From IMG/VR virus record IMGVR_UViG_3300029982_000009: a stretch of 64,000 bases of DNA, one strand, 5' to 3'. This document shows positions 10,886 through 63,567 of the stretch, piece after piece. Numbering within the stretch: the stretch's first letter is position 1; every line of letters starts with the position of its first letter. The translations under genes and the position numbers were made by a program. The notes under the pieces were generated by a model. That model did not search any database, had not been told where the DNA came from, and saw nothing but the letters and a program-made list of their open reading frames with translations. Source of the DNA: a virus (Duplodnaviria > Caudoviricetes).

Positions 10886-10900
10886 ATTGATATTTATGCC

Positions 10901-17726: not shown

Positions 17727-17974
17727 TGTCTTCTCCGAAACAACGGATGATTAAAGAAAAAGTCGTTAAAATTTACCCTGATGCCAAATTGCGTCGCAAG
17801 TATGGAATATATTATCGAGTTTTTCGCTCGCCTATGCTAGATTCTTGGATGGAGGAACCAGGCCTATTAACTTTTTGCACCCCAATTGATGGTTGGTTCA
17901 GATCATCCGACAAGGCGTGGGAGTATGCCTGGAAAGAAATACAAACAGATTTAATTGAGAGGTTTGCATATTGA
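17726..17974 (+). CDS. Small paralogue, IYPxA...AW family
   Basis: KEKVVKIYPDAK...DKAWEYAW...LIERFAY; TAATG coupling. Confidence 0.7.
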   Translation: MSSPKQRMIKEKVVKIYPDAKLRRKYGIYYRVFRSPMLDSWMEEPGLLTFCTPIDGWFRSSDKAWEYAWKEIQTDLIERFAY

Positions 17975-18486
17975 AAAATATTTTTCTATCTTCAGATGCC
18001 CATTTTTCGCATCGTAACATTATTAAGTATTGCGATAGACCATTTTTTTATGTCGAAGAAATGAATGAGCGACTCATTCAGAACTGGAATGAGGTTGTTC
18101 GAAATGATGATGAAGTTTATTATTTAGGTGATTTTGGATTACACAGTCCTGAAGTGCTTATGCCATTTAGAAATCGATTAAATGGTAATTGGAAAATGTT
18201 TATCGGCGGCAATCATGATCGAAATTCATTATTGCAAAGTCCGGGACTAGCCGAGCAAGTAGTTAAATTCAGTGAGAAAAAAGTTGTTAATTTTGAACTA
18301 GACGGTATTCCTTTATGGTTAAGTCATTGCCCAGCAAATGTTCTACCTAACGATCCAATTAATCTTTACGGGCACACTCACGATCATGTTCCTATGCTAG
18401 CGGGTAACAACCGTAAAATTAACATTGGGGTTGACGCTTGGAATTTATATCCAGTAGCTTGGGAGCAAATTAAAGCCTTGCTATAA
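17971..18486 (+). CDS. Calcineurin-like metallophosphoesterase
   Basis: DAHFSH, LGDF, GNHD, GHTH motifs. Confidence 0.9.
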   Translation: MKNIFLSSDAHFSHRNIIKYCDRPFFYVEEMNERLIQNWNEVVRNDDEVYYLGDFGLHSPEVLMPFRNRLNGNWKMFIGGNHDRNSLLQSPGLAEQVVKFSEKKVVNFELDGIPLWLSHCPANVLPNDPINLYGHTHDHVPMLAGNNRKINIGVDAWNLYPVAWEQIKALL

Positions 18487-18488
18487 TT

Positions 18489-19097
18489 TTAGGAGCCCTC
18501 TTCAATATTAAAATAGTTAGATGCATCCTGAATATAATACCGACTTAACGCAAAATAATTTCCATGAATAATAATTTCATTGCCGGAGGCTAACGCTTCC
18601 GGCAAATTGTCGTGTCTAAAACCCAAATTCTTAATGAAAGTTAATGCTTCTTCATGTGTTGGAATATTTCCGCGTTTTGAAAATGGATTTCTCGGGGCAA
18701 TCCAATTATGTAATTCTTTTTGAACAAGTCGACTAATACCGATATCCGAAACATGCTGACTCCAAGTAAAAGAAAATCCATCCTCTGGAAAAATCAAATA
18801 TGGATTTCCGAATAGGTAGACTTCTGTTATATTTGGTGTGCAGCTTCTTGAATTTGATCTTAACGCGGTAAATCCGTTTGTTTTAAGAATATGATCCAGC
18901 ATCGCCTGCTCTTGTAATGATTGCCCTAGCGGCATTCTAGTATTAGGTGTCGCCGCATTAAAAAATGGTTTTCTTGTATCAATACCACGATATAAAAATG
19001 TATTAGCGGCTTTGACACCGGAAATAAATTCCTTACAGGAATCATTTATTCGGGTTAATGTATCATTTATACTGATTTCAAATTCGTCGGCTTTCAT
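18489..19097 (-). CDS. ADP-ribosyltransferase-like paralogue 1 (putative)
   Basis: FLYRG / ALRSNS..CT / FG..YLIFP..GF.FTWS / GNEI; late promoter 19103-19108. CDS solid, function inferred. Confidence 0.6.
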   Translation of the reverse strand: MKADEFEISINDTLTRINDSCKEFISGVKAANTFLYRGIDTRKPFFNAATPNTRMPLGQSLQEQAMLDHILKTNGFTALRSNSRSCTPNITEVYLFGNPYLIFPEDGFSFTWSQHVSDIGISRLVQKELHNWIAPRNPFSKRGNIPTHEEALTFIKNLGFRHDNLPEALASGNEIIIHGNYFALSRYYIQDASNYFNIEEGS

Positions 19098-19227
19098 GTA
19101 ATTATTTAGCTCGATTACGAGATAAGCCCGTATTGTTCTTAAGAGCCACGGATGTAGCGAGTTAGAATTAAGATATACCTTTTAAGCTCTTAATTGTTAT
19201 ATTTTTCATAAATGGCTAAATATATTT

Positions 19228-19415
19228 ATGTTCAAGTCATTCAAATATCGATTAACTCCAACCAAAGAACAAGAGAAAACTCTTGTGGAATGGCAAGGGC
19301 AGTTGAGATTTGTTTGGAATAATTTTCTTAAGCAAAATATTGATAGATATCAATTGGAAAAGAGATTCATCTTGGAAACAGGAAGCCACTTCTCTTTAGA
19401 GAAGTGGTAGTTCAC
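19228..19415 (+). mobile_element. tnpB: Internally deleted IS200/IS605 element: TnpB N-terminal HTH fragment plus right end
   Basis: KSFKYRLTPTKEQ...G..RFVWN matches the OrfB HTH; followed by GGAAG-CCACTTCTCT-TT-AGAGAAGTGG-TAGTTCAC hairpin typical of the IS605 right end. Confidence 0.8.
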
Positions 19416-19443
19416 CGAATTACCTCATCGCATAAATATCTAT

Positions 19444-20376
19444 ATGACAACTTTTCCAGAACTTAATCCAGGCGAAACGACAAGTTTTCCGAGAGGACAG
19501 GCCCCCGAAATTCAAGCCAATCTTTTTTCAACGTATTCTAGGGTTGATAGAAACAGACTTATACAAGTGTGCAAATTTATCGAAGAACATTGCTCCGAAT
19601 TTTTAGCATCGGCCAAAGCCGCCAATAGATTTTTATATCGAGGAATTAAAACTTATGATTCGCCTTCAAAAATTTTTTTAGGCAGCCCACGCAATGACCG
19701 ACGTTCTAGAGATACCGATCCAGCGGTTCAGTTAATAGTCGATGAATATTTAACATTGCAAGGATTTAAAGCACTACGATCAAATAGTATTTTTTGCACT
19801 GGAGAAGAGCAGAATGCGTTGACATATGGCGATCCATATATTATTTTTCCTATTAATGGATTTGAGTATACCTGGAGCCTAGAGCATCTTGATTGGGTTA
19901 TTCAACCGCGCTTCTTATCCCCGAATTATAGTGCCCTGCGAAATATTTTTAACGACATCTATTATAGTACCCGAGACGATACACACAAGGCAACCCTTGC
20001 AAATATTGCTATAAAAAATGCTGTGGAAATATATGTTAAGCCTTTTACGTGGGGCGGTAGCGGAGATGGCTATTTTTATGATCTTGCCCAGTTAAGAAAG
20101 TTTATGCAAATTGCTGCAAAATTATCGGCAACTGTTGAAGAAGTTCGTCATTATTTTACACCCGAATTAAGAGCAAAAATTAATAGACTAATATCAAATT
20201 CACTTAATCCAAAAATTGCATCCCAACAATTTGTCAAACTGAATAAATTATTGAAAACTCGGCTAGATACCGCGATTAAATTAGATCACGAAGTTATGAT
20301 TCACGGTTCGTACGTAGCAGTAGAGTCAAATAAATTTAATGAAGCATTGGGTCAATATTTTCTTAATATTAATTAG
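19444..20376 (+). CDS. ADP-ribosyltransferase-like paralogue 2 (with large insertion)
   Basis: FLYRG / ALRSNSIFCT / YGDPYIIFPINGFEYTWS / DHEVMIHG; TAAATA at 19433-19438. Confidence 0.6.
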   Translation: MTTFPELNPGETTSFPRGQAPEIQANLFSTYSRVDRNRLIQVCKFIEEHCSEFLASAKAANRFLYRGIKTYDSPSKIFLGSPRNDRRSRDTDPAVQLIVDEYLTLQGFKALRSNSIFCTGEEQNALTYGDPYIIFPINGFEYTWSLEHLDWVIQPRFLSPNYSALRNIFNDIYYSTRDDTHKATLANIAIKNAVEIYVKPFTWGGSGDGYFYDLAQLRKFMQIAAKLSATVEEVRHYFTPELRAKINRLISNSLNPKIASQQFVKLNKLLKTRLDTAIKLDHEVMIHGSYVAVESNKFNEALGQYFLNIN

Positions 20377-21062
20377 GGCCGCCTACCAGAAAGTTTTGGA
20401 TATTTTCTACCTATTCCCGCAATAGCTTTTGTTTTAACACCCTTCATAATAGATTGCGCTTCTGGACTATTTGGAGACAGCAGGAAATTATTTAATTTTC
20501 TGCGGGCAATATCTAGATCTTGATCAATCATATTTTCATTATTCTGTACTAACGAAAAATATCGCCCAAATAATAATTCATATAATGCTATATTCTGTTT
20601 AACAGAAGAATATGCTTCCTGGAAATAATCAAGGTCTACTTTGCGTTTATCTGCACGATCTAGTGCCGTTTGATATCTTGATTCTATTCTCGCTCTTGCA
20701 ATAGATTCGTCAACGTCTACAAATATCATGAATGTTTGATAATAACATTCTTTTAATTTTTTGTTCAATCGAATTATTACGTCTGCATTTCTTCCGGTAG
20801 TATTAATAATTAATCCTAAATAATCATTGGCCCATAGATTAAAACGTTTTTCGGTAGTTTTACCGGCTGTCTCATAATCTGATAATGTTTTTAAATGTAG
20901 TTTGGTTCGATCTATATCTAATTGTTTGAATCCTCGGGTCTCGAGACCAAATTCTTTTTCAATGGTAGTTTTTCCACTACCGGGCGACCCGACTAAAAAT
21001 ATAGCCTTAAAGTTAAAATTATCGTGGACGCCCTCATTTAAAATCGCTTCAGATATTTTCAT
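20373..21062 (-). CDS. P-loop kinase (AAA_33/zeta-toxin-like) with MKISE leader
   Basis: KAIFLVGSPGSGKTT, LDID, INTTG; late promoter 21068-21073. Confidence 0.75.
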   Translation of the reverse strand: MKISEAILNEGVHDNFNFKAIFLVGSPGSGKTTIEKEFGLETRGFKQLDIDRTKLHLKTLSDYETAGKTTEKRFNLWANDYLGLIINTTGRNADVIIRLNKKLKECYYQTFMIFVDVDESIARARIESRYQTALDRADKRKVDLDYFQEAYSSVKQNIALYELLFGRYFSLVQNNENMIDQDLDIARRKLNNFLLSPNSPEAQSIMKGVKTKAIAGIGRKYPKLSGRRP

Positions 21063-21075
21063 ATTAATATTTAGT

Positions 21076-21744
21076 CTAGTCTGTTATGCCAAAATATTTT
21101 CTAGCTGCCTCGCCATACAACGACCCACTAATAGCGATGTATTGGCCATTGATTATTATTTCGTTTCCAATTCTAAGAGCCATATCAAAATGCTTATTGC
21201 CGAAAAATTCCCATTTATCAACAAATTTTTTAGCTTCATCACGGGTGATAGCATCTATTCTTCTCGAATCATTAAAATCTTTTAGTTCCCAATATAGATT
21301 GGAATTACTTCCGATATCCTTAATTCTTGCACTCCAGGTAAAATTAAAACCTGTCAACGGAAAAATTAAATAAGTTGCTCCAAATGACATTTCCACTTTC
21401 GACGTGGTACAAATAGAATTTTTTCGTAGGGCGGGAAAGTTATTCAATTCAAATATATGATCCAAGAGTTGTTGTCCATATGGGCTAGCCCATATGGACA
21501 ACCTACTTATGGGTGTAAGCCCGTGGAAAATAACAGGCCGGTTACTGATACCTCCAATACCCCGATATAAAAAGGTATTATTCTTCTGCATAATAGGTAG
21601 TACATCACAATGTGTTGTTATAAAATCGAGAACTTTTTCTAATTTTTCTGAGTTGTAATTTTTAATGCCACCGTAGTTATCGGCCCAGTCATCTACTGTA
21701 CTGGTATTAATGTCACTCGGATTTATTATTTCGTATATTTTCAT
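21076..21744 (-). CDS. ADP-ribosyltransferase-like paralogue 3
   Basis: MKIYEI leader; FLYRG / ALRKNSICTT / IFP..GFNFTWS / GNEI. Confidence 0.6.
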   Translation of the reverse strand: MKIYEIINPSDINTSTVDDWADNYGGIKNYNSEKLEKVLDFITTHCDVLPIMQKNNTFLYRGIGGISNRPVIFHGLTPISRLSIWASPYGQQLLDHIFELNNFPALRKNSICTTSKVEMSFGATYLIFPLTGFNFTWSARIKDIGSNSNLYWELKDFNDSRRIDAITRDEAKKFVDKWEFFGNKHFDMALRIGNEIIINGQYIAISGSLYGEAARKYFGITD

Positions 21745-21749
21745 TGTAC

Positions 21750-22424
21750 CTAGCCTGTTATCCCAAAATATTCTTTAACTGCATAGATATATGGATAATC
21801 TGATGATTTAATAGCAACATATTGCCCATTAATTGTAATTTCATTACCTACCCAAAGAGCTTGATCGAAATTATTATTTCGAAAGTCCCACTTTTTAATA
21901 AATTTATTTGCGGCATCCTGGTCTAATCGATTAATTCCTATATAGGAATTATATAATTTTTTCAGCTCATTATAAATTTCATTATTACCACCTACATCTT
22001 TTATAATTTTGCTCCAGGTAAAATTAAATCCATTCACCGGAAAAATATAATATATTTTTCCAAAATTTACATATTCATCGGGTTTGGTAGTTGCACATAT
22101 TGAATTTCTTCTTAATGAAATAAATCCTGTTAGCTTAAATATTTTATCTAATATCCATTGTTGATCTTTTCCCATACCATACGGTTCCCGCGTAACCGGG
22201 GTCGCCCCCAGAAAAATAGTCGGCGAGGGCGCGTTAATTCCGCGATATAAAAATTTATTCTTTGATTGCATATCTTTTACGGCCTGACTACAATGTTTAG
22301 ATATAAATTCGAAAACATGTTCCAATTTTTCTTGCTCGTAATTTTTAAAACCACCAAACCCGTTGGTCCAAACATCGAGGTTATCCTCGTCTTCAATTGG
22401 TTTCAATAATTCGAATATTTTCAT
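21750..22424 (-). CDS. ADP-ribosyltransferase-like paralogue 4
   Basis: MKIFEL leader; FLYRG / SLRRNSICAT / IFPVNGFNFTWS / GNEI. Confidence 0.6.
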   Translation of the reverse strand: MKIFELLKPIEDEDNLDVWTNGFGGFKNYEQEKLEHVFEFISKHCSQAVKDMQSKNKFLYRGINAPSPTIFLGATPVTREPYGMGKDQQWILDKIFKLTGFISLRRNSICATTKPDEYVNFGKIYYIFPVNGFNFTWSKIIKDVGGNNEIYNELKKLYNSYIGINRLDQDAANKFIKKWDFRNNNFDQALWVGNEITINGQYVAIKSSDYPYIYAVKEYFGITG

Positions 22425-23071
22425 TATATTCCTATACCAAATCGTTTTACTAGTTCGGTATGATACTTATCGGCCAATGCGATATATTGACCATGAATAG
22501 TAATTTCATTTTTACTGTGCAGAGCCATTGCAAAATTATTTTTTGAGAATTGCCAGTATTTAACAAATTTTTTTGGAGAACTAACTAGCTTTTCGCGTGC
22601 CAACGAACTTGCCAATTCGTTATTTGCTCCAATATCTTCAATTTTTGGACTCCATGTAAAATCAAAACCCTTAACGGGAAAAATATGATATAATTTACCG
22701 AATCCGTATAAATCTGTATTGCTGCCCGTGCAACAGATGCTATTTGAGCGTAATGAAGAAAATCCACACTGTTGTAATATTTTATCTAACAGCGGTTGAT
22801 CATATTCCGCGCTGTATGATTCACGCGCTGTCGGCGTTATACCATGAAATACATTGGGTACGCCAACATCATACCCTATTCGACGATATAAAAATGTTTG
22901 CGTATCTTGCATGGCTGTAACAGCTTTTTTACAGTGCTTATCAATAAAATTCATTATTTCTCTAGTAGGAGAGTTGTATACTTTTTGCCCGCCATGCGTT
23001 TCATCCCATAAGTCATCCGGATTCTCTTTTTCAAAATCTTTAAATGGTTTCATTAATTTATTTAGTCGCAT
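22424..23071 (-). CDS. ADP-ribosyltransferase-like paralogue 5
   Basis: Start moved to MRLNKL (23071) behind TAAATA at 23076-23081; FLYRR / SLRSNSICCT / KNEI. Confidence 0.6.
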   Translation of the reverse strand: MRLNKLMKPFKDFEKENPDDLWDETHGGQKVYNSPTREIMNFIDKHCKKAVTAMQDTQTFLYRRIGYDVGVPNVFHGITPTARESYSAEYDQPLLDKILQQCGFSSLRSNSICCTGSNTDLYGFGKLYHIFPVKGFDFTWSPKIEDIGANNELASSLAREKLVSSPKKFVKYWQFSKNNFAMALHSKNEITIHGQYIALADKYHTELVKRFGIGI

Positions 23072-23117
23072 ATTATATTTATTGACTTTTATTAGAAATA
23101 TAATGTATAATAAAAAC

Positions 23118-23663
23118 ATGAAGAATTATACAAATATTATGCTCGATCTCGAGACCTGTGGAACTATTCCAAATGCGAAAGTATTATCAATTTCTGCGGT
23201 AGCATTTGATCCGTTTGATTATACAGCAGATTTATCAGATAATCCAACCTTAGATTTATTGCTGTCTTTAGACGATCAGGAGAATCGTTATGAAGATCCC
23301 GCAACTCTAGAGTGGTGGGCCAAGCAAGATCCATCGGTTATTGAAAAGATTTTCAGCGATACCGGACGGGTATCAGTTGAACATGCACTAGCCCAGTTAA
23401 CCAAATTTGTATGGAATAAGGACCGACTTTGGGCACAAGGAATCGCAGTTGATTTTCCAATGCTTGATAATTTATATCGAGAACACAGCAAGAATATTCC
23501 TTGGCAGTATTGGCGTGTAACAGATAGCAGAACATTACGTGCATTGACGACTACACAAGAATATCCGGCTAGTCATGACTCGCTCGACGATTGCCGTCAG
23601 CAAATTAGAGCAGTCACAGAAGCATTGCATAAATTGGGTGTTGAAGAATTTTCCCGCAAGTAA
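23118..23663 (+). CDS. 3'-5' exo(ribo)nuclease, DEDDh family
   Basis: IMLDLETCGT, AQGIAVD, RVTDSRT, HDSLDDC; sigma70-like promoter 23082-23111. Confidence 0.85.
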   Translation: MKNYTNIMLDLETCGTIPNAKVLSISAVAFDPFDYTADLSDNPTLDLLLSLDDQENRYEDPATLEWWAKQDPSVIEKIFSDTGRVSVEHALAQLTKFVWNKDRLWAQGIAVDFPMLDNLYREHSKNIPWQYWRVTDSRTLRALTTTQEYPASHDSLDDCRQQIRAVTEALHKLGVEEFSRK

Positions 23664-23680
23664 TTTGCTATATAAGACAA

Positions 23681-23712
23681 GTGAAGGAGCCAATTGGCTC
23701 CTTCCTTAGTCT
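23681..23712. terminator. Bidirectional terminator
   Basis: GAAGGAGCCAATTGGCTCCTTC palindrome between convergent genes. Confidence 0.7.
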
Positions 23713-24428
23713 GTGACTTTAATTCCGTTTGGCCCTAGATTTCCGCTAACGCCTATTTTTGATAACTCTAAGGTATTAGGATGATTGCCGAAATATCTGA
23801 ACAATAGGTGCTCAATATCTTTATATTGTCCAATTTCTAATGCACTACTAAATTCTTCTAACATTAGATTATACCGATAAAAGACCAACGCTGTTCGATC
23901 AGCCGGCCAACTCCACAATCTCGACATAAACTGAAAATTTAACCCACCGGTAACCTGTGCTGGAAATTGGCTATTTCTTCGGGCGGCAAACATATATTTG
24001 TTCCTATGTTCAAACGTTTCCACTGAGAACCCGTCGGATAAAAAATACCTTCCACTCAATTTAAATACTCGATCAATATTTTCTAATAATTTCGGCCGGC
24101 TAACTACAAAATCTAAGGTCTTACCAGTTACAAGTAATTCTGTATACGATTTTACAACATCCCAATTATCGGTTGATTTATAAATTTGTTGAACCTGGAT
24201 ATCGGTATTATAATTAATAAGTCCTAATAGATACGGTTTAAGAATTGCAGATTCTTCTTCTGTAATACTGCTTTCCCCACTGCTTTCGGAAAGAATAATT
24301 TGCGCATCGGGAATTTTATCTTTCACACTTTTTAATGTATTAATAGTTTGCTCTAATCGTTGTTCGGCAGAATAGACACCATGCTTGGTATGCAATGCGC
24401 TACCGATTAAAAATAAAGTTTTGATCAT
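23706..24428 (-). CDS. Putative glycosyltransferase-like protein
   Basis: R..QT..T..S, FKLSGRY and DIEH motifs resemble GT-A-like phage proteins. Confidence 0.5.
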   Translation of the reverse strand: MIKTLFLIGSALHTKHGVYSAEQRLEQTINTLKSVKDKIPDAQIILSESSGESSITEEESAILKPYLLGLINYNTDIQVQQIYKSTDNWDVVKSYTELLVTGKTLDFVVSRPKLLENIDRVFKLSGRYFLSDGFSVETFEHRNKYMFAARRNSQFPAQVTGGLNFQFMSRLWSWPADRTALVFYRYNLMLEEFSSALEIGQYKDIEHLLFRYFGNHPNTLELSKIGVSGNLGPNGIKVTD

Positions 24429-24429
24429 A

Positions 24430-25269
24430 TTACTCCAAATTGAAAAGATATGGATTAGCCTGCGCCAATCGATTTCTATAAAAAATATAATGTTCTAATA
24501 ATTCATGGCGCCCACCGGAGATTGCCGCGGTTTTTATGTCGGACAACGAGCGCAGTTCATCTAAGATATGAGGCGGCAATTTTGTTTTATTTAGTAATTC
24601 ATCCCGTGTATAACGGTAATGTTCTACCTTTATATTATGATTTGTATTAATAAAGACACTAAACAGCCGTTCTACGACAAAGGTAAAATAAGGGAGTGCG
24701 GCGTTAGGTCCATAATGAGCGGCGGTTTTAAACATCATATCGTAATCGGCTGAATCCGTTTTTACCATATCGATAAAAAACTTTAAAAAATCAATATACT
24801 GTTTCCAAAATATTTTATTTCCAACAAAATAATTACAAAGCGCGAATGTCTCTGAATCCATCCAAAGTTTATTTAAATCTACAGATATGTGCATCTTATT
24901 AAGATTTCGTTGAATCAAATCTTTTAGTCCGGGATGACAATTCTCGCCTTGAGTAATTACACTAGGAGATAGACTTTCATTAATCGGAGTTGGATTAATA
25001 AAATAGACATCGGCTCGATTCGGATCTATTTCGATAAAATCGATAAATTGCTGGCCAGTAATATTAGTCTTTGCTTCAAACTTTGGACTAACAAATCCCC
25101 ATAGATCTAATCCGTGCTGTAATGCATATGTCTGTCCTGGTTCAAAAGATTGGTATTCACATAATTCGGGATGCAAATTTTCTAAATTATTATAGGGAAC
25201 AAACGGCAATTTAACTTTTTCCAGTTGTTCCTTTAGATAACATATTTGATATACTTGTATTTTGCTCAT
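24430..25269 (-). CDS. Putative glycosyltransferase-like protein
   Basis: VYQICY, WGFVSPKF, CNYFVG, ERLF motifs; paired with the previous gene. Confidence 0.45.
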   Translation of the reverse strand: MSKIQVYQICYLKEQLEKVKLPFVPYNNLENLHPELCEYQSFEPGQTYALQHGLDLWGFVSPKFEAKTNITGQQFIDFIEIDPNRADVYFINPTPINESLSPSVITQGENCHPGLKDLIQRNLNKMHISVDLNKLWMDSETFALCNYFVGNKIFWKQYIDFLKFFIDMVKTDSADYDMMFKTAAHYGPNAALPYFTFVVERLFSVFINTNHNIKVEHYRYTRDELLNKTKLPPHILDELRSLSDIKTAAISGGRHELLEHYIFYRNRLAQANPYLFNLE

Positions 25270-25302
25270 GTAATATTATAGCACATTGAAATAAATACTT
25301 AT

Positions 25303-26013
25303 ATGAAAATTGCAGAATTATTATTTGAGGGTGGTAATGCCTTTGTTGGCGACTTAGCTGTAATTCGTATTGCTAGAGCCCAAGTAAAACCTACGGTCGC
25401 TTTTCTAGAGGGTATTACCGGTCTCTCGCTTTTGAATAACATGCTCGGATCAACGGGTATTAAAGAAACGAGTGGAGATATCGATCTAGCAGTTGATAGG
25501 TCGGAAATAACTAAAGATGAATTATTAGTTACTATCAGACAATGGACAGATGCTCATAATATGACGGCCGTTATGCCTGCAAAAAAATTAGGCAGTAGTG
25601 TAACGATGCGTTGCCCGATCTCTGGCAACCCGAAAAATGGTTTCGTTCAGGTAGATTTAATGTTTGTATCCGACATTGAATTTGCGAGATGGGCAATTCG
25701 TGCGAATCCTGATAGTAAATATAAAAATCTAGTAAAGAATAAGCTATTATATAATCTTGCAAAGTCGATGAATTTACGATATCAAGAGCAGGAAGGATTA
25801 ACTACTCTTGACACAAAGAAACTTCTTAAAAATGGCAATAATCCAGATTTCATTGCGAAAAAATTATTGAATGCTAAAGCAACGAGAAAAGATATTGAGT
25901 CAGTTGAAAGTATAATGGCTGCATTGAAAAATGATCCTAAAAAAGAGGAAAAACTTCGATTTGCTTATCCTGCGGTATTGGCAGAAGTCGGAGTTGATTT
26001 GAGATCGATATGA
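25303..26013 (+). CDS. Pol-beta-superfamily nucleotidyltransferase with MKIAEL leader
   Basis: LGSTG-x4-SGDIDL and VQVDLM third aspartate; ATAAATA at 25291-25297. Confidence 0.75.
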   Translation: MKIAELLFEGGNAFVGDLAVIRIARAQVKPTVAFLEGITGLSLLNNMLGSTGIKETSGDIDLAVDRSEITKDELLVTIRQWTDAHNMTAVMPAKKLGSSVTMRCPISGNPKNGFVQVDLMFVSDIEFARWAIRANPDSKYKNLVKNKLLYNLAKSMNLRYQEQEGLTTLDTKKLLKNGNNPDFIAKKLLNAKATRKDIESVESIMAALKNDPKKEEKLRFAYPAVLAEVGVDLRSI

Positions 26014-26597
26014 AAATATGCGAAATTGAGAACTCAACTCCTCTGGAACGATTGGAGATGGCAGAAATGGTAGCAAATAATATTCAAGACAATTGTTCTA
26101 CGGCTATCAAGTCATTTAATGTATGTCAGAATCTTTTGTTTTCCGGAATTTATAACCACACCGAATTTTCATTTACCAGCCACTCGCCGGAACATAGAAC
26201 GCCCAGAGGTATGTCAAAAGAGCAACAACTCTATCTTGATTCATGCCTAAGAATAATGGGGTTTACTGCATTACGAAGTAATAGTATGTTTTGCATTGCC
26301 GATTATATGCAAGCTAAAAATTTTGGAGAATTGTATATAATTTTTCCTTGTGATGGATTCTCGTTTACATGGAGTAAGAAACGAAAATATATGTCCTGGA
26401 TTAATACCCCGCATGGTCCTTTACTTGCTAGCAGAGCTGATGCGTCGGCAACAATTTCTATTTTTGGATTAAAGAATAAAAATTTTGTCAATGCGGTTAA
26501 CTCGGGGAATGAAATATTAATACATGGTGACTATTATGCGTTGAAAGTATATACAGATGGCGCCGCACGGGTTTTGAAAAAATTAGGTATATTCTAG
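26010..26597 (+). CDS. ADP-ribosyltransferase-like paralogue 6
   Basis: MKICEI leader; LFSG / ALRSNSMFC / IIFPCDGFSFTWS / GNEILIHG. Confidence 0.58.
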   Translation: MKICEIENSTPLERLEMAEMVANNIQDNCSTAIKSFNVCQNLLFSGIYNHTEFSFTSHSPEHRTPRGMSKEQQLYLDSCLRIMGFTALRSNSMFCIADYMQAKNFGELYIIFPCDGFSFTWSKKRKYMSWINTPHGPLLASRADASATISIFGLKNKNFVNAVNSGNEILIHGDYYALKVYTDGAARVLKKLGIF

Positions 26598-26609
26598 GTA
26601 AATACTAAT

Positions 26610-28112
26610 ATGCGATACTTTGAATTGTTTGAATCGAGTCGAGGAATTTTTGTAAGAACCCAGGAAGCCGCAGCGGGCAAAACTATTACGGTTTCAAATA
26701 AGGAAGGAGAAGTTTTAACGGCAATCGGAAATTATCTTCTTCCCGAGACTGGATTGTTTTATGCAAATGATGATGTTTCCAGCCTTCCGGCTAAAGCAAG
26801 ATTGCTGCCTTTAGGCGAGCAGAAAAAATTATTAAAGACCGGGCAGCAAAAAGTAATGGATGCATTGGAACAATATAAAATCACCGCAAAAATTTTACCC
26901 GCCAATTGGCATATTACGAATACTGCGGGAAGAGCGGCAATGATTACTCTCTGGACAAATAGCCGTAATCAAAAAGTTGCGTTTGTAAAACTATTTGTAT
27001 CCAAGAGTCCGAGTGCAATCCCATTTTATTGGAGCAATAGCAATTTCGCTCGAGATACCGGGTTTGCATTATCAAATGATGCTCAACAAAAATCTGAATT
27101 AAATCTTAAACCATTAACCGTTGTTGGGGTCGATGCGAGATTTACAATTGACGATCTATTGGAACAAATTGACGAAAATATTATAACCCATACCGAACTT
27201 CCTTTAGAAGTAATTGAGCAGGTGCCCAAACTTCTTAAGAATATTCAAGTCGGGTTTTCAAGTCCTATTGCAAATGCAGCCCAGTATATTAGTTCATATG
27301 AAGTTGATTTAGGTGAAACCGGGGCTCCGATTGCATTAATGACCGGTCATTTTATATCCGGCGCATACCAACAAGTTGAGGAACAATTATTGAAGCCAAT
27401 GGGATCAAGCTGGGCAAAGATTAAAACCTGCTCTTTTCCGATGGCAGGCAACGAACAGTTGGTAGATAGTTATTTAAACATTGACGCTGATACAAAATTA
27501 GGTATTAGTTCAAAAAATTCTAAAGGCGGCGCCGCTGCTAGCATTACAAGTTTATCCTCGGTAATTGAAAAAAATCCTGAAAGATTTAAAGATCTTGTTA
27601 AAAAGAAAAAATACAAATATCTATTTAATGTAATTAATCTTTTAAAGAATAAATCCGCAATTGATGGTCCACTTGAATTAGGTGTTATGTATGGAATTAT
27701 TGACGCCGCTGATTTGATTAAAATTAAGGCGGCCATTGATGATCCCAATCTTGTTAAAACCGACGTAACTAAAAAGCTGCAAAAATTGTTGGCCAATAAA
27801 ATTTATAACCCAGTTACCACAAGTCCTAATTATACTGTCGGGTTGCATCTTCTTACGGTAGTTGCTCATTTAGTAACTGCTCACCTTAATGAGCAAGAAG
27901 ATTTAGTTACCGAATTTTTCAAAGCTATCTTAGCTAGGTCAAATATGATTCAGGTAATGACCAAAATAAGTAAGACCGGAACCGGGGCAGCATTCACAGA
28001 TTTCAATGTTATCTGGCCACCAGTATTTCAGGGAAAGGTCCAATTTCAGTCCCAAAAAGCGTATTCAGCGAGTGCAAGGCCAAACGGACGAATATGTTTT
28101 AAAATTCACTAA
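26610..28112 (+). CDS. Hypothetical 500-aa protein, possible PD-(D/E)xK nuclease fold
   Basis: MRYFEL leader; DLGE...LVDSY...GISSK pattern; TAAATA at 26599-26604. Confidence 0.5.
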   Translation: MRYFELFESSRGIFVRTQEAAAGKTITVSNKEGEVLTAIGNYLLPETGLFYANDDVSSLPAKARLLPLGEQKKLLKTGQQKVMDALEQYKITAKILPANWHITNTAGRAAMITLWTNSRNQKVAFVKLFVSKSPSAIPFYWSNSNFARDTGFALSNDAQQKSELNLKPLTVVGVDARFTIDDLLEQIDENIITHTELPLEVIEQVPKLLKNIQVGFSSPIANAAQYISSYEVDLGETGAPIALMTGHFISGAYQQVEEQLLKPMGSSWAKIKTCSFPMAGNEQLVDSYLNIDADTKLGISSKNSKGGAAASITSLSSVIEKNPERFKDLVKKKKYKYLFNVINLLKNKSAIDGPLELGVMYGIIDAADLIKIKAAIDDPNLVKTDVTKKLQKLLANKIYNPVTTSPNYTVGLHLLTVVAHLVTAHLNEQEDLVTEFFKAILARSNMIQVMTKISKTGTGAAFTDFNVIWPPVFQGKVQFQSQKAYSASARPNGRICFKIH

Positions 28113-31645: not shown

Positions 31646-32425
31646 ATGAGAATCATTAAACCCGTTGTTATCGTCGAAGACGACCTCGAAATGCTGTTGC
31701 CTAATGGAATGACATTGGCGCAACACATGTTAAAGAAAATTGAAATGTTTTCCAGAAAGTGTTATAAATCAGAAGGTCGAATGACCGATGATTCCTATCT
31801 CACATTTCCCGGTAGACTTTTCAATACAAATCGGCATACCGGAATTGCCGAGCATCGAATGATTTCGTCGACATTCATTACAGATCGAGGAGTCTCCCAC
31901 GAAGGCGTGCGTCACAGAATGGCGGCCTACCTGCAGGAAAGTACAAGGTACGTTGATTATGCAAAAGAAGGCGAGTTAAATAAAGGTGCATCATATATTT
32001 TGCCACCGTGGGTTAATGAATATTCCTCAGATAACAATGATGATTGGGCAGAATTTGTTAGTGATACACGAGCCGATGATTCCCGATACGCAAAATGGCG
32101 GACTCGTGGGTGGACCCCAGAAAAGGCTCGGTATTGGCTTCCTCAAGGCGTGAAGACAGAATATGCTGCAAGTCTAAATTTAGGTAGCTGGTGGAATTTT
32201 TTCTATAAACGAACACCGGAAACTGCACATCCTTCAATGCGGCAGGTTGCAATTCCATTGCATCAATATTTTGTAAAACATCTTCCGCAATTTTTTGAAA
32301 AGTTAACGAATTATGTAGTAGTCGACGATAGATTTTTGCACAAGGGACAATGGTATCCGATGGCGAAATTAGTTGTTAATCCGTATTACGACCAGGTTGA
32401 ATTCGAAGAAGTATATTCAGAATAA
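31646..32425 (+). CDS. thyX: Flavin-dependent thymidylate synthase
   Basis: RGVSHEGVRHR-x7-S (RHRMAAYLQES) ThyX motif and EKAR..LP. Confidence 0.92.
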   Translation: MRIIKPVVIVEDDLEMLLPNGMTLAQHMLKKIEMFSRKCYKSEGRMTDDSYLTFPGRLFNTNRHTGIAEHRMISSTFITDRGVSHEGVRHRMAAYLQESTRYVDYAKEGELNKGASYILPPWVNEYSSDNNDDWAEFVSDTRADDSRYAKWRTRGWTPEKARYWLPQGVKTEYAASLNLGSWWNFFYKRTPETAHPSMRQVAIPLHQYFVKHLPQFFEKLTNYVVVDDRFLHKGQWYPMAKLVVNPYYDQVEFEEVYSE

Positions 32426-32437
32426 CAAAAGGAAAAA

Positions 32438-32728
32438 ATGTTAAACGAAAAAGAAAAAATCAAAACAATCCAATCACATTTAGAAAAGGTTGGTAGTAGA
32501 TATCTGCTGGCAACAATGGTAATGGCCCGAACAAATCAGCTTATCAACGGAGCGTCGATTAAGCATGGACTTTCAAAAGAATTTAATCCGGGCCGAGAAG
32601 AAATACCTTTTTGCCGGCTACCAAAGATTGCATTGGAAGAAATTCGAACCGGTAAATTAACGTGGAAGCATGTTTCAAATGAAAACGGGGCTCCGCCCGA
32701 GATCGAATCACCGGTATTTCACGAGTAG
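32438..32728 (+). CDS. rpoZ: RNA polymerase omega subunit-like protein
   Basis: VGSRYLLATMVMARTNQL..GA and KIALEEIRTGKL match the omega signature. Confidence 0.78.
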   Translation: MLNEKEKIKTIQSHLEKVGSRYLLATMVMARTNQLINGASIKHGLSKEFNPGREEIPFCRLPKIALEEIRTGKLTWKHVSNENGAPPEIESPVFHE

Positions 32729-32776
32729 AAACTATCGGAAATATTTCCGTTAACATTTATACCGAGAGGAAAAAGT

Positions 32777-33388
32777 ATGCTGCTAATTGGTGACGTACAT
32801 GGAAAATTTAAGGAATGCAAAAAGATTGTAACGGAAAATCCCGGCAAGACAATTATTCAGGTGGGGGATTTTGGTGTCGGTTTTCCAGGGCAATCTACGC
32901 TTCCAACTTTCCCTGAAAATTTTTATTTTATTCGCGGAAATCATGATAACCCCGCAGTAGCAAGAGCACACCCCAATTATCTGGGTGATTATGGTGTTAA
33001 AATTATCGATGATCGAAAAGTATTTTACTTGTCTGGCGCTTGGAGTATCGATCAAAGATTTCGCCGATCGGGATTAACCTGGTGGTACGATGAAGAGCTT
33101 TCGATTAAGGAACTCGAAGATGCATTTGAACTTTATATCAATGAACGACCAGAAATTGTGCTCTCACATGATTGCCCCACGAAAGTAGCAGCGCACATTT
33201 TACTTCGGCATTCATTGTATGGCAATCCGGAAGTTTATCCGACTCGAACAGGGCAAGCACTGTCCGCAATGTTTTCGGCATATCAGCCGAAATATTGGAA
33301 TTTTGGGCATTACCATGCCGACTGGGAAAAGACAATTGAAGGCACAGAGTTTCAATGTCTAAATGAACTTTCGATTTCAGAACTGTAA
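32777..33388 (+). CDS. Calcineurin-like metallophosphoesterase
   Basis: GDVHG, VGDFG, GNHD, SHDCP, GHYH. Confidence 0.9.
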   Translation: MLLIGDVHGKFKECKKIVTENPGKTIIQVGDFGVGFPGQSTLPTFPENFYFIRGNHDNPAVARAHPNYLGDYGVKIIDDRKVFYLSGAWSIDQRFRRSGLTWWYDEELSIKELEDAFELYINERPEIVLSHDCPTKVAAHILLRHSLYGNPEVYPTRTGQALSAMFSAYQPKYWNFGHYHADWEKTIEGTEFQCLNELSISEL

Positions 33389-33417
33389 ACAGTTTATAGC
33401 AAAGACTTTATATTCGG

Positions 33418-33446
33418 TTGACATTTAGACTGATATTTGTTATACT
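33418..33446 (+). promoter_or_regulatory. Sigma70 early promoter
   Basis: TTGACA-17-TATACT. Confidence 0.85.
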
Positions 33447-33466
33447 TATTTAAGTAAGGAGATCAA

Positions 33467-33661
33467 ATGAATTTAATTTTAGGTGCAATTGTTTGGATTG
33501 TATTCGGAGGAATTGCGCTTGTGTCCTTTGGTTTTTTGATGTTTTTGATTAGCCAATTGGCCGGATGTTTTCATTGGACTCCCGAACAACGAGCAGCTAA
33601 TTTTGCTGGCATTGTTGCTGGATTTGTTCTTTATAAAACCTTAAGAAATCGGAGAAAATAA
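33467..33661 (+). CDS. Small two-TM membrane protein
   Basis: Two hydrophobic segments and basic C-terminus; AAGGAG RBS. Confidence 0.65.
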   Translation: MNLILGAIVWIVFGGIALVSFGFLMFLISQLAGCFHWTPEQRAANFAGIVAGFVLYKTLRNRRK

Positions 33662-33846
33662 TGTCGAAGCGTAAAAAGGATGTTTTCAGTGCTGTTGCTC
33701 AAGTGAAATCGAATGCCCGAGATCGTATTGGTACACCTAAGGCTTCGTTTGCAATCACACCAAAGCATGAAAAACCCGCTCGTTATAAGACTTCTATGCG
33801 AGATCTTATTGCCAAGGCCAACGATGAGGACCACGATACCGATTAA
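33661..33846 (+). CDS. Small basic hypothetical protein
   Basis: 61 aa, TAATG coupling. Confidence 0.6.
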   Translation: MSKRKKDVFSAVAQVKSNARDRIGTPKASFAITPKHEKPARYKTSMRDLIAKANDEDHDTD

Positions 33847-33973
33847 GTCATTGATTTAAAAGGGTCGATATATTATAATTCCCCCACCAGGGCCCCAATA
33901 TGGGCCCGTTGTGGTCTGGTATGGCGGAATTGAATCAGGGCATACTGGGGTGATTTAAGTCCTTTGTTTTCAA
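33844..33973 (+). repeat. Conserved non-coding cassette, copy 3
   Basis: TAAGTCATTGATTTAAAAG at 33844 and TAAGTCCTTTGTTTTCAA at 33956; CCCCAATATG / CATACTGGGG inverted repeat; followed by TTGACA-17-TATACT (33988-34016). Confidence 0.85.
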
Positions 33974-34022
33974 CCAGTAATTTTCTCTTGACAAACTAAC
34001 CGAAAGTTGATATACTTTAAGC

Positions 34023-35342: not shown

Positions 35343-35345
35343 TCT

Positions 35346-35546
35346 GTGGCTGAAACCTACAAAATCGTTCGGTATTATGCTGATTCCAATAAGCGGAAAC
35401 GAACCATGTATCGAGGATATACTTTGGAGCAAGCACAAGAATGGTGCAAGCGTGAAGATACTAGTTCGGCGACCACGCAAACCCCGTCTGGTAAGGAGGC
35501 AACTCGCCGAATGGGTCCGTGGTTTGAAGGATATGAAAAGGAATAA
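35346..35546 (+). CDS. Small phage hypothetical protein
   Basis: YKIVR...LEQAQEWC...PWFEGY. Confidence 0.6.
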   Translation: MAETYKIVRYYADSNKRKRTMYRGYTLEQAQEWCKREDTSSATTQTPSGKEATRRMGPWFEGYEKE

Positions 35547-35582
35547 ATGCCTCATTACTGAGGCAGAAATGGATGTGTTTGA

Positions 35583-35867
35583 ATGAGTCATTACGGTAAA
35601 AATATGAAGGTTAAAAAGACCGTTGTTGTTTCGTGTTTCGGAAAAAATTACGTAACATCGAAAGGCCTGGGATCAGTATTAGCGGACCAGGCGGCCTCCC
35701 GAGTTCTTGAGCGGATTCGATTTAACGTGCAACTATATGGAACGCCGAATTACTCGAACCGCCACGAAAACTTTTTAGCTCTTTGGAGAAAGAATCATGC
35801 GCGTGTTCGCGCCAAGTTTTATCGTCGTGCATTACCTATTTTGAAGAAATTGTTTGAAGAGGAATAA
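35583..35867 (+). CDS. Basic hypothetical protein
   Basis: 94 aa in operon. Confidence 0.55.
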   Translation: MSHYGKNMKVKKTVVVSCFGKNYVTSKGLGSVLADQAASRVLERIRFNVQLYGTPNYSNRHENFLALWRKNHARVRAKFYRRALPILKKLFEEE

Positions 35868-36074
35868 ATGCCTGATTTTTACGAACTAACAGGAACGAAG
35901 AATAAAAACCCACTATATCGAATTGTAGTTCAGTCTAGATATTCGGACGACGAATCTTCGGCCTTCGGTAGGAGGATAGTAGTTCAGTATTATCGATTTT
36001 ATGGGAAGAATTCTCTTAAGGAAGCCGAAGAGTTTATTCGAGATCGTAATTTGATTGAACGATTTTCTCTATAA
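35868..36074 (+). CDS. Small protein with EAE...LIERFSL tail
   Basis: 68 aa; C-terminus resembles the LSE-tail family. Confidence 0.6.
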   Translation: MPDFYELTGTKNKNPLYRIVVQSRYSDDESSAFGRRIVVQYYRFYGKNSLKEAEEFIRDRNLIERFSL

Positions 36075-36152
36075 TTTTGGGATGTTGCTTGACTTTTCAT
36101 GCTAAATAGTTTACACTGGTAATGTGAGTAAAATCACAGGAAGCAGGACATT

Positions 36153-37072: not shown

Positions 37073-37100
37073 TAATAAGTCCGAATCCTTTCTGATTCGG

Positions 37101-37625: not shown

Positions 37626-37679
37626 GTTGTTGCTATATTTTTATTATTGTTGTATACTATAAATATTGAGGAAATAAAA

Positions 37680-38339: not shown

Positions 38340-38340
38340 G

Positions 38341-38694: not shown

Positions 38695-38705
38695 ATACAA
38701 ATTGT

Positions 38706-61273: not shown

Positions 61274-63004
61274 ATGGGATATAAAGTAAATTTAACTAAT
61301 GGAAATATTTTAACAAACGTCCCCGATTCTCAAATGGTATCTGCTTATGGCGGCCTTACTCTTATCGGAAAAAAATATCCAGGTTTCGGTACGGTCTTAA
61401 ATGAAGATTTAGTTAGAATAACTGAAAATTTTGCAAACTCTACCCCTCCCCCAAATCCATTCATAGGACAATTTTGGTTCGATAGCGTTTCTAATATCAT
61501 TAAGTTCTGGAATGGAACAATTTTCAAACCAATAAGTGTTATTACTACCGGCGCGGTAGCCCCATTAAATCCATTAGAAGGTGACGAATGGTTTGACACC
61601 GTACATAAACAACTTTTTGTATGGGATATAACTCTTAATCAATGGATTTTAATTGGGCCTCCGGGAAGTGAAGGCACCGGGCTAGAAGGATTTGTGGTAA
61701 CTGCATTAGCGTCTAATAGTAATATTATCTATCTAGAATTATATGCTAATGATAATCTTATTGCTATTGTCTCTTCAGATAATCTCATTAGTCCAGGTAT
61801 AGCAGGGTTTGGAAATATTAGACCCGGCATAAATTTTGTCACTTCACCGACGCACGGTATTACCGGCAGCGGAATTTATAACGTCAACGATATATCAATT
61901 GGCGACAATGACCAACTTCGCATGTCTATTGATGTTAATGACAATACAGTACTATCGGTTAACAATGGCAATGTTCTTTATGCTACTAATGGAAACACGT
62001 TGGTTGCAGGAGAATTAGCAAATATAACTGGTACCGTGTATATAAATAATTTAGTTGTAGCTAATTCGCTTTATAGTACTGTACCTGGCAGTAATAATCA
62101 AGTATTGTTTAATCAAAATGGTATTTTATCCGCTACTGCTAATCTAACATTAGATAGCACGGGTGAGAATGTAATAATTCCAAATACTTTAAATGTTGAA
62201 AATATTGAAGTTTACGATACTGTTGATATAGCAGGCAATGTAAATTCAACCGGTGCAAATATAATTGGTCCGTTAACGGTAGCAAATTCGGCTGCTATTA
62301 GTGAATCATTATTAATTTCAGAAAATCTTTCTGTATTGGGTACTGCTATACTAGGCGGGCTGATTACAGGAGCGGAAACGGCAAGTTATGTAACAATACA
62401 GCCCGGCGCGACCGCACCAAAAGCTCTTGTAGTTCAAACTTTTGGCGGCAGCACTAATCTATTAACAATTGATTCGGTTGGTGACACCACTGTTAATGGC
62501 ACTCTTACGGTACAAAATCAACTTTCAGTAGATGGTGTTTCAACTCTAGACGCACTAGTTACTGCGCAAAGTGATTTACACATTCAAGGAACTACGGTAA
62601 TTAATCAAGGAGGTGCGGGCCAAATATCATTACCTACGGCAGCGCCACCTTCTGTAGGATCTCCGCTTATAAATGCAGGCTCGGCATTAGCAGCATGGGG
62701 TAACTACAATCTTAATTCATTTTTAACTCATGCTCTTAGCGGCAATGGATATCAATATTTTCCGGGTGGCCTAATCTTGCAATGGGGTACGACTCCGTCA
62801 CTTGTGGATAATACTACACAAAATTTTCCCTTTACTACCCCATTTACCCATGCTTGTTTTGGAATGGTTGCTACCGATAACGGGCCGCGTGTAACACTAG
62901 GAGTACCCCAACCAATGGCGGCAGCGCCAACAGATTCCGATCATTTTAATATAATTTGCGGTGGTAGTGGGGAAACTGCGTTCTGGATAGCAATAGGATA
63001 TTAA
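61274..63004 (+). CDS. Tail fibre/baseplate protein with C-terminal gp53-like PGGLILQWG domain
   Basis: LTLIGK.Y.G.G...ENFA...PxNPxxGQxWFD; GYQYFPGGLILQWG. Confidence 0.72.
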   Translation: MGYKVNLTNGNILTNVPDSQMVSAYGGLTLIGKKYPGFGTVLNEDLVRITENFANSTPPPNPFIGQFWFDSVSNIIKFWNGTIFKPISVITTGAVAPLNPLEGDEWFDTVHKQLFVWDITLNQWILIGPPGSEGTGLEGFVVTALASNSNIIYLELYANDNLIAIVSSDNLISPGIAGFGNIRPGINFVTSPTHGITGSGIYNVNDISIGDNDQLRMSIDVNDNTVLSVNNGNVLYATNGNTLVAGELANITGTVYINNLVVANSLYSTVPGSNNQVLFNQNGILSATANLTLDSTGENVIIPNTLNVENIEVYDTVDIAGNVNSTGANIIGPLTVANSAAISESLLISENLSVLGTAILGGLITGAETASYVTIQPGATAPKALVVQTFGGSTNLLTIDSVGDTTVNGTLTVQNQLSVDGVSTLDALVTAQSDLHIQGTTVINQGGAGQISLPTAAPPSVGSPLINAGSALAAWGNYNLNSFLTHALSGNGYQYFPGGLILQWGTTPSLVDNTTQNFPFTTPFTHACFGMVATDNGPRVTLGVPQPMAAAPTDSDHFNIICGGSGETAFWIAIGY

Positions 63005-63567
63005 TGAGAGAATTTGAAATTACTCCAGACCTCAATAATATTAAAAAATTTATCAGCAAATCTTGCTCTCAAATTGTTGATTTCTACAAATCTTCGGGTG
63101 AATTTCTTTATCACGGATCACACCGATTAGAAAATATGTTTATTATTTCTAAGGTTGCCGATAGGCACCCAATGTCATTTTCTATTAAACAACAAAAAAT
63201 ATTTGATGAAAAATTATCAGCAGCAGGATTTAAGGCTCTACGATCGAATAGTATTTTCTGCACAAATAAAAGATCTGTGGCAAATAGATATGGAAAAATT
63301 TTCATAACCTTCCCATTCAATAACTTCGAGTTCACATGGTCAGAAACGATGCAAGATTTATATACGAATTATGATCAGGGCAAATATTCAAAATACGCAC
63401 CTAAAATTATAGACATGGATCCCAACGAGTTTACTTCGTTATATTCATTTAGGCAGGATAATTTGTTAAAGGCAACTACATCAGGTAATGAAATACTAAT
63501 TACTGGAAAATGTATGTTCTTGGCGGAAGAAAAATTCAATGCACTTATCAAGGAATTAATAGCTTGA
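63004..63567 (+). CDS. ADP-ribosyltransferase-like paralogue 7
   Basis: MREFEI leader; FLYHG / ALRSNSIFCT / YG..FITFP..FEFTWS / GNEI. Confidence 0.6.
   Translation: MREFEITPDLNNIKKFISKSCSQIVDFYKSSGEFLYHGSHRLENMFIISKVADRHPMSFSIKQQKIFDEKLSAAGFKALRSNSIFCTNKRSVANRYGKIFITFPFNNFEFTWSETMQDLYTNYDQGKYSKYAPKIIDMDPNEFTSLYSFRQDNLLKATTSGNEILITGKCMFLAEEKFNALIKELIA

Follow-up and report, generated by a model that had tools for sequence, protein, structure and literature searches.

Seven paralogous genes in a 64-kb phage window

The virus record IMGVR_UViG_3300029982_000009 was analyzed over a stretch of 64 kb, in the following called the window, which carries 70 genes of a large, T4-like phage. Seven of these genes encode members of one protein family, for which structural models predict an ADP-ribosyltransferase (ART) fold. 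A profile hidden Markov model (HMM) built from 80 family members showed exactly seven matches among the open reading frames (ORFs) of the window with at least 70 amino acids (aa). The ORF list, the alignment and the family HMM bear out the first-pass annotation of this DNA, which had placed seven ORFs at these positions and had described four ordered motifs shared by them. An end-to-end alignment of the copies contains 24 invariant columns, and their pairwise identities range from 26% to 50%. Since each copy matches the profile HMM of phrog_11975 with an E value between 3e-18 and 8e-36, the similarity of the paralogues lies far beyond chance. The copies are listed below; the first position refers to the first motif.

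18489..19097, minus strand: paralogue 1, 202 aa; Arg at the first position; N-terminus MKADEFE; match to phrog_11975 with E 3e-22; orthologues in the related loci L018, L019 and L038
19444..20376, plus strand: paralogue 2, long form, 310 aa; core with a helical insertion at about residues 154-266; member of the kinase-linked subfamily
21076..21744, minus strand: paralogue 3, 222 aa; Arg at the first position; leader MKIYE
21750..22424, minus strand: paralogue 4, 224 aa; Arg at the first position; leader MKIFE; 50% identical to the 21076 copy
22424..23071, minus strand: paralogue 5, 215 aa from the ATG at 23071; Arg at the first position, followed by Arg replacing Gly; N-terminus MRLNK
26010..26597, plus strand: paralogue 6, 195 aa; Ser at the first position; Tyr replacing the conserved Asp118; leader MKICE
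63004..63567, plus strand: paralogue 7, 187 aa; His at the first position; the modelled copy

At the first position, the alignment shows Arg in five copies, His in the 63004 copy and Ser in the 26010 copy, just as had been read from the sequence before. The start of paralogue 5 was set by the alignment to the other paralogues and by a TAAATA box 4 nucleotides (nt) upstream, the frame being open to 23119. Paralogue 5 is the first gene of an operon with the order 22424-21750-21076. The 19444 gene overlaps the kinase gene at 20373..21062 tail-to-tail, the start of the 26010 gene overlaps the stop of the 25303 gene, and the start of the 63004 gene overlaps the stop of a tail-fibre gene with a Gp53-like_C domain.

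An insertion of about 90 aa, which had been noted for the 19444 copy, was found both in the alignment and in the model. With a length of about 90-100 residues, it lies after the TWS strand and before the conserved Glu, and in structure matching it resembles only generic helical bundles. In the long forms of the family, a conserved N-terminal motif L-x-P-G-(E/Q) (residues 5-12 of the 19444 copy, for example) takes the place of the MKIxE leader. In the model this motif precedes an extra strand at residues 12-14.

Fold assignment

The AlphaFold2 model of the 63004 protein (family alignment as input; model mad7a8bc63472) showed a predicted local distance difference test score (pLDDT) of 92.6 and a predicted template-modelling score (pTM) of 0.88, and the model of the long 19444 copy (mfd504dc39c43) likewise reached a pLDDT of 92.6. 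For the fold search, VIA-align compared the model with every one of 48,161 representatives of the PDB. About 27 of the 32 top rows were chains of the ART superfamily, led by BC2332 with a Z of 6.0, Arr with 5.2 and a PE-like toxin with 4.3. Further ART matches were 6kyf (an anti-CRISPR protein, which we take to be AcrIF11, an ART), cholix toxin, exotoxin A, PARP16, DarT, AvrPphF ORF2, tankyrase, CopC/OspC3, diphtheria toxin, an Rhs ART toxin, Tpt1 and pertussis toxin. A second structural look returned ART-superfamily chains in 50 of 50 rows, with a best Z of 6.8 over 125 residues. An independent ESM Atlas model of the family had DUF2441, DUF3841, ART-PolyVal and DUF3990 as nearest named structural neighbours. 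Two of these, DUF2441 and DUF3990, belong to the Pfam ART clan according to PMC7955679, which also gives ART-PolyVal as one of the known sets of ART domains.

Foldseek against the PDB and the Swiss-Prot models gave no significant match (best 2aua with an E value of 0.022), so that the fold was assigned from VIA-align and the Atlas. Altogether, it is very probable from the models that the family has an ART fold, and this assignment is made because of the near-uniform identity of the matches and not because of their strength.

The order of elements in the 63004 model can be described as follows. A strand at residues 36-39 carries the R/H37 position and is followed by a long helix, by N82-S83 leading into a strand at 84-87, and by two further strands. 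After a helical excursion at 119-159, Glu163 leads into a strand at 164-167. In this numbering the ordered triad of ARTs, with R/H on strand 1, S/Y on strand 2 and E at the start of strand 5, was found.

Conserved residues and putative active site

Conservation was determined from 80 diverse members with a mean identity of 27%, and all residues are given in the numbering of the 63004 copy. Met1, Arg54, Arg80, Pro104 and Glu163 were invariant in 80 of 80 members, and Asn82, Ser83, Trp112, Asp118, Gly38 and Asp68, among others, were conserved to at least 90%. The strand-2 motif, which is S-T-S in the R-S-E (cholera-toxin-like) clade with T4 Alt, ModA and ModB, reads R-[S/K/R]-N-S in the family; its Asn and its last Ser hardly vary, unlike the first Ser. 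Based on the model, the active site would be composed of the R/H on strand 1, the two invariant Arg, the Asn-Ser pair and one Glu.

In 137 sequences from related loci, the strand-1 position was occupied by R in 117, by H and K in six each, by S in five and by T in two. The Ser of the 26010 copy had earlier been taken as a possible sign of an inactive decoy. This is unlikely, as the orthologue L018:35-643, which pairs with the 26010 copy in the tree with a support of 100, keeps the same Ser, the same change of Asp118 to Tyr and all other invariant residues intact. A decay of the Ser and His copies was likewise considered and was rejected.

Family size, distribution and diversification

In a HMMER scan of 1.84 billion representative proteins, 5,653 clusters passed a limit of E<=1e-3 and 3,211 the stricter limit of E<=1e-10, and the ESM Atlas neighbours of the family were viral to 94-100%. 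The family is thus almost wholly viral, very large and unnamed. When 185,579 prokaryote species genomes were scanned, within the limits of the patterns used, only two loci were found, both in one Candidatus Dojkabacteria metagenome-assembled genome (MAG). The two contigs (L003 and L004) carry three family copies and a homologue of the kinase, and they are probably phage contigs that were binned with this MAG. Megablast of the gene island against GenBank phages gave no match, so that there is no annotated close relative. Literature searches found no paper naming the family, though the supplementary lists of two surveys from the Aravind laboratory could still include it.

Tandem arrays occur in the 62 related viral loci, with as many as ten family genes in 20 kb. 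Copy numbers per record amount to about 12 in Agrobacterium phage Atu_ph07, about 15 or more in one 242-kb contig and about eight in the closest relative, and jumbo-phage genomes devote up to about 10 kb to the family. Accordingly, the seven genes of the window are not the special seven-member expansion for which they had been taken, and represent one case of a very large viral family with arrays in many phages.

In the tree, the 21076, 21750 and 22424 copies form a local triplet, while 18489, 19444 and 26010 each group with orthologues in related contigs. A recent local burst of all seven copies was ruled out on these grounds, since only the triplet is local. The orthologues of the three other copies indicate that the set is a maintained repertoire.

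Diversification is distributed unevenly along the proteins: the seven copies share 41-48% identity in the core, compared to 21% in the segment between strand 4 and the Glu. In known ARTs this segment is the site of the ARTT target-recognition loop. The helical-bundle insertion of the 19444 copy falls into the same segment.

Fusions of the family to GNAT domains, to KOW/SH3 repeats and to tandem copies of itself were also observed. Protein P0004 (2,645 aa) carries five tandem copies of the ART-like domain, and proteins of 743-1,198 aa in the loci L055, L057, L058 and L061 combine the domain with KOW/SH3-like repeats, their genes always adjoining a kinase gene divergently.

Leader and presence of homologues in the virion

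Gp53 to gp63 of Atu_ph07 are members of the family, and all eleven are contained in the published virion proteome of this phage. In purified virions analyzed by electrospray ionization tandem mass spectrometry, these homologues were represented by 3-31 unique peptides (PMC6102473 Table S5). The gene products were matched to the accessions by a fixed offset, which was checked via lengths and masses. An earlier comparison of the window proteins with T4 Alt, i.e. with packaged effectors, thereby gains real support, which comes from homologues.

Most of the short members share a start of the form M-x-(I/L/V/M/F)-x-E (76 of 81, compared to 18 of 71 long ones), and in the 63004 model this stretch is disordered. 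In its strict form the leader occurs on six of the 70 window genes, all of them within 20.3-28.1 kb, namely three paralogues (21076, 21750 and 26010), the kinase gene and the genes at 25303 and 26610. Atu_ph07 shows a different leader, M-(K/R)-W-x-Q-L-x-E or more loosely M-(K/R)-(W/L)-x-x-L-x-E, on gp43 and gp53-63 (record positions 32108-50592). Within the first 54 kb of its genome, 12 of 12 ORFs with this leader are virion proteins, compared to 28 of 67 genes overall; as 11 of the 12 are paralogues, these are not 12 independent trials. The leader therefore co-varies with the phage and not with the protein family, which is expected of a signal read by a phage-specific assembly machinery.

In T4, the protease gp21 cleaves after L/I-x-E, and Alt loses an N-terminal propeptide of seven residues (PMC9026906). 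The propeptides lost by T4 virion components range from seven residues (Alt) to 65, and a capsid-targeting sequence of ten residues suffices for packaging (PMC9026906). A Peptidase_S77 protein, i.e. a protease of the gp21 type, was found in three of five related records including one that is 91% complete, the other two being fragments. By analogy to T4, it is likely that at least the leader-bearing copies are packaged and ejected. Packaging in the phage of the window, like leader cleavage, the use of nicotinamide adenine dinucleotide (NAD) and the targets, is what we infer here, in the case of packaging from the Atu_ph07 proteome, the conservation of the leader, the gp21 rule of T4 and the S77 protease.

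Kinase and neighbouring genes

The following genes adjoin the paralogues:

20373..21062, minus strand: Zeta-toxin-like P-loop kinase, 229 aa; leader MKISE; Pfam Zeta_toxin match with 5e-13, supported by the Atlas
25303..26013, plus strand: gene of Pol-beta-like nucleotidyltransferase fold, 236 aa; MKIxE leader; G-S...D-I-D motif; Atlas neighbours NTP_transf_2/DNA_pol_B_palm
26610..28112, plus strand: gene of 500 aa; leader MRYFE; no Pfam or PHROG match

The kinase shows a recurring connection to the family. The match of the kinase to phrog_12810 covers positions 261-457 of this profile, and that of the ART-like copies covers positions 17-153. In gp53 of Atu_ph07 an ART-like N-terminus is fused to the kinase, and a metagenomic protein of locus L050 contains both domains in the opposite order. 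A kinase homologue is present in 33 of 64 related loci, mostly directly adjoining an ART-like gene, and a clade with a support of 96 holds eight of the 11 convergently kinase-adjacent copies, the 19444 copy included. Viral relatives of the kinase are also fused to CTP_transf_like or NTP_transf_2 domains. This link may reflect a shared pathway or mere co-delivery as in polyvalent proteins. A complex prediction of the 19444 protein and the kinase with NAD gave a score of 0.01, which is uninformative on binding either way.

The neighbours other than the kinase recur in close relatives only. Judged by its Atlas structural neighbours, the 25303 protein is probably a nucleotidyltransferase of the Pol-beta fold, and its homologue gp65 is present in the virion proteome of Atu_ph07. 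Homologues of the 26610 gene adjoin ART-like arrays in L038, L053, L041 and L033. A gene for a calcineurin-like metallophosphoesterase (17971-18486, plus strand) flanks the array, and one for an Rv2179c-like 3'-5' exoribonuclease (23121-23663, plus strand) interrupts it; both recur in the closest relatives only (L018, L019 and L038). A CCA-adding enzyme is also encoded in the window.

Expression context

The hexamer TAAATA is located 5 nt before the ATG of paralogues 1 and 2, of the kinase gene, of the genes at 25303 and 26610 and of two genes encoding proteins of 930 and 2,440 residues, and 4 nt before the ATG of paralogue 5:

TAAATA boxes, with no Shine-Dalgarno sequence between box and ATG: 19103-19108 (minus strand), 19433-19438 (plus), 21068-21073 (minus), 23076-23081 (minus), 25292-25297 (plus), 26599-26604 (plus), 10891-10896 (minus) and 46505-46510 (plus)

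The remaining copies lie in operons or overlap the stop of the tail-fibre gene. In T4-type phages, TAAATA serves as the late -10 element. The canonical T4 late promoter TATAAATA was found eight times in the window compared to 12.6 expected occurrences, which is no enrichment, and none of these lies near the genes described. As far as can be told from the sequence, the arrangement is compatible with late expression. If TAAATA acts as a late -10 element here, transcription would begin on the start codon or right beside it, and the transcripts would be leaderless.

Interpretation

Based on the models and on the analogy to T4 Alt, we hold it to be moderately probable that the proteins are virion-packaged ART-fold enzymes, which would be ejected together with the DNA and would use NAD+ on different host targets. 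The proteins would be made late, either behind the TAAATA-N5-ATG motifs or in tail-fibre operons. The short forms would then be targeted to the prohead, where a T4-type prohead protease would trim them after the short (I/L)-x-E leader, and they would be carried in the virion and ejected into the cell with the DNA like T4 Alt. There, each paralogue could use NAD+ to place ADP-ribose on a different host target, the choice of which would reside in the helical, poorly conserved stretch that connects strand 4 to the catalytic Glu. Because of the extra arginines and the absent Q/E-x-E, the acceptor might be phosphate-rich (a nucleic acid or a nucleotide) or a protein side chain other than arginine. 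The Zeta-like kinase and the Pol-beta-like nucleotidyltransferase, which carry the same leader, would be co-delivered. A bolder version of this proposal, which we put forward tentatively as a possible but doubtful extension, is that of an unrecognized major class of phage-ejected ART-fold enzymes with an active-site signature of their own (R/H, two invariant Arg, Asn-Ser and one Glu), which act on nucleic acids or nucleotides and not on protein arginine. They would be delivered from the capsid with the Zeta-like kinase and the Pol-beta-like nucleotidyltransferase as a multi-enzyme kit under one cleavable (I/L)-x-E leader, and would have been diversified by an arms race with host defences into arrays of 7 to >15 copies in T4-like jumbo phages.

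A number of observations, however, speak against the proposed packaged NAD-using enzymes. With regard to the fold, all structural Z values are at most 6.8 and thus below 8, a range in which the tool warns of a merely common arrangement. No Pfam ART model matches any window copy even at E<=1, and two family profiles find no ART sequence in the PDB; these profile searches against Pfam and the PDB gave noise only (His_kinase, YpsA and nicotinamidase at E 0.11). Comparison by hhalign resulted in probabilities of 0.7% for T4 ModA and 2.7% for ModB, and the alignment with ModB covers only the strand-1 motif, which reads LYRGI in ModB as in the family. With regard to catalysis, the Q/E-x-E motif of arginine-specific R-S-E enzymes is absent, the residue two before E163 being G, D, G, G, K, G and G in the seven copies (of the 137 sequences from related loci, 51 have G and 15 have E there). 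Catalytic residues, moreover, do not usually vary as the strand-1 position does, where R, H, K, S and T are all tolerated. With regard to packaging, the presence in virions was seen for homologues of about 20-38% identity in another phage, and virion proteomes from polyethylene glycol-purified particles, here with 131 listed proteins, can hold contaminants. Furthermore, the strict I-x-E leader is found in three of the seven copies only: 18489 and 63004 show x-F-E, 22424 has Lys in place of Glu, and the N-terminus of 19444 is different. The earlier reading of the genes as ARTs is supported for the fold, for the order of the motifs on strands 1, 2 and 5 and for an Alt-like way of life. Sequence kinship to ModA/ModB or to a Pfam ART family was not detected. 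As judged from sequence motifs and models, the family seems to work like an ART at the level of fold and motif and to stand outside the Alt/Mod family and every curated ART family.

The recurrent kinase link could also be explained by a function in small-molecule metabolism, in which the ART-fold enzymes process small nucleotides or RNA ends with the kinase, and perhaps with the nucleotidyltransferase too, and do not act on host macromolecules. Possible activities would be the use or regeneration of NAD+ or ADP-ribose, the destruction of immune signals derived from ADP-ribose, or a Tpt1-like 2'-phosphotransfer in RNA repair. Kinases of the Zeta family act on nucleotide sugars and NAD (zeta toxin, AvrRxo1), and the presence of the kinase in about half of the loci (33 of 64), the two independent fusions of opposite order and the kinase-adjacent clade would fit such a pathway, as would the fusions of viral kinase relatives to CTP_transf_like and NTP_transf_2. 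The two extra invariant arginines and the missing Q/E-x-E suit phosphate-bearing substrates, Tpt1 and Arr are among the structural matches, and a CCA-adding enzyme, an exoribonuclease and a metallophosphoesterase are encoded in the window. However, the last two are kept as neighbours only in close relatives, and the Tpt1 matches are weak (Z 2.2-2.9), the family being without the second lobe of Tpt1. Moreover, 7 to >15 diverged paralogues with a hypervariable recognition region are ill-suited to one reaction, and the GNAT, KOW/SH3 and tandem fusions resemble polyvalent injected effectors and thus point to co-delivery. We therefore regard this explanation as rather improbable.

Less probable still, and unlikely in our view, is that the proteins are non-catalytic virion components on an ART-like scaffold, such as internal proteins of the head, proteins that condense or eject the DNA, or molecules comparable to T4 IPI that block host defences as stoichiometric inhibitors or decoys. 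The internal proteins of T4 are likewise small, leader-bearing and diversified (PMC9026906). The homologues in Atu_ph07 are abundant virion proteins in multiple copies, inactive ART-fold domains exist (PARP13 and AvrPphF ORF2 are among the matches), and the first motif residue is not strictly conserved. Against this stands the invariance or near-invariance of R54, R80, N82, S83, D68, D118 and E163 at a mean identity of about 27% and across thousands of clusters, which points to catalysis or ligand binding; the Ser variant, too, keeps the invariant residues in two orthologues. The low Z values, Foldseek E values of 0.02 or worse against the PDB and the missing profile link to ART families would also fit a wrong fold call, i.e. 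an unrelated alpha/beta enzyme that is ART-like only by a common arrangement of strands. This is very unlikely, as one superfamily accounts for about 27 of the 32 top rows in the unbiased search and for every one of the 50 rows in the second look, the independent Atlas model has similar neighbours, and three motif positions lie where the ART triad is located.

The leading worked examples of how phages take over their hosts and counter defences are ARTs such as Alt, ModA, ModB and AcrIF11. The present family, with no function in Pfam or PHROG, makes up eleven of 131 proteins in the one relevant virion proteome, that of Atu_ph07. Should its members be active enzymes that use NAD and are delivered along with the DNA, few pools of uncharacterized injected effectors in phages would be larger, and the arrays would represent a ready panel for finding new targets of ADP-ribosylation, possibly nucleic acids. 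The short conserved leader, if it acts as proposed, would be a testable, portable capsid-targeting tag outside T4. With recombinant proteins from Atu_ph07, which is a cultured phage, the family is open to direct test.

Comparison with known systems

T4 Alt is one of the close analogues. Like the putative enzymes described here, it is an ART-type protein of a T4-type phage; its short N-terminal propeptide ends in (L/I)-x-E, and the leader of the short forms would be the counterpart. For Alt both carriage in the head and ejection have been shown, whereas for the Atu_ph07 homologues it is the presence in the virion. Both the T4 enzymes ModA, ModB and Alt and the present family occur as several paralogues per genome, and the LYRG of strand 1 in ModB is the same as in the family. 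In contrast, hhalign detected no kinship (ModA and ModB below 3%; the comparison did not include Alt itself). Further differences to the T4 ARTs are a single Glu in place of E-x-E, two extra invariant arginines, a size much smaller than that of Alt, 7 to >15 copies compared to three, and the link to a kinase.

The best structural match is BC2332 of Bacillus cereus (PDB 2AUA), with a Z of 6.0-6.8 over 125-128 residues, a root-mean-square deviation of 4.0-4.4 and 12% identity. We take BC2332 to be a member of DUF2441 (PF10386), a cluster of which is also an Atlas structural neighbour with a template-modelling (TM) score of 0.51; the Pfam model of DUF2441 matches no window copy. DUF2441 proteins are bacterial, single-copy and of unknown function, and therefore this match names a fold and not an activity.

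Arr, DarT and AcrIF11 are small, minimal ART domains, which were matched with Z values of 3.3-5.2, and ARTs of this size act on small molecules, DNA bases and defence proteins. They show no sequence similarity to the family, and their catalytic residues, which are sets of the H-Y-D/E type, differ from the set of R/H, R, R, N-S and E. To our knowledge, none of them is a multi-copy virion protein. For Tpt1/KptA the match is weak and restricted to the NAD lobe, and the model has a single lobe, compared to the two-lobed enzyme with its R-H-R-R tetrad.

With the polyvalent proteins, the family shares multi-domain relatives, such as the five tandem copies in 2,645 aa and the kinase, GNAT and KOW/SH3 fusions. 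ART-PolyVal is an Atlas neighbour, and both are predicted to be injected effectors. In contrast to polyvalent proteins, the domains in the window are encoded by separate small genes, most short forms of the family carry the leader, and the Pfam model of ART-PolyVal gives no match. The grouping closest in sequence is phrog_11975 (together with phrog_12810 and phrog_15932), which all seven copies match and which bears no annotation of function or fold. Altogether, the family is new as a named entity, and it differs from the known ART clades in its conserved residues, its copy number and its kinase linkage.

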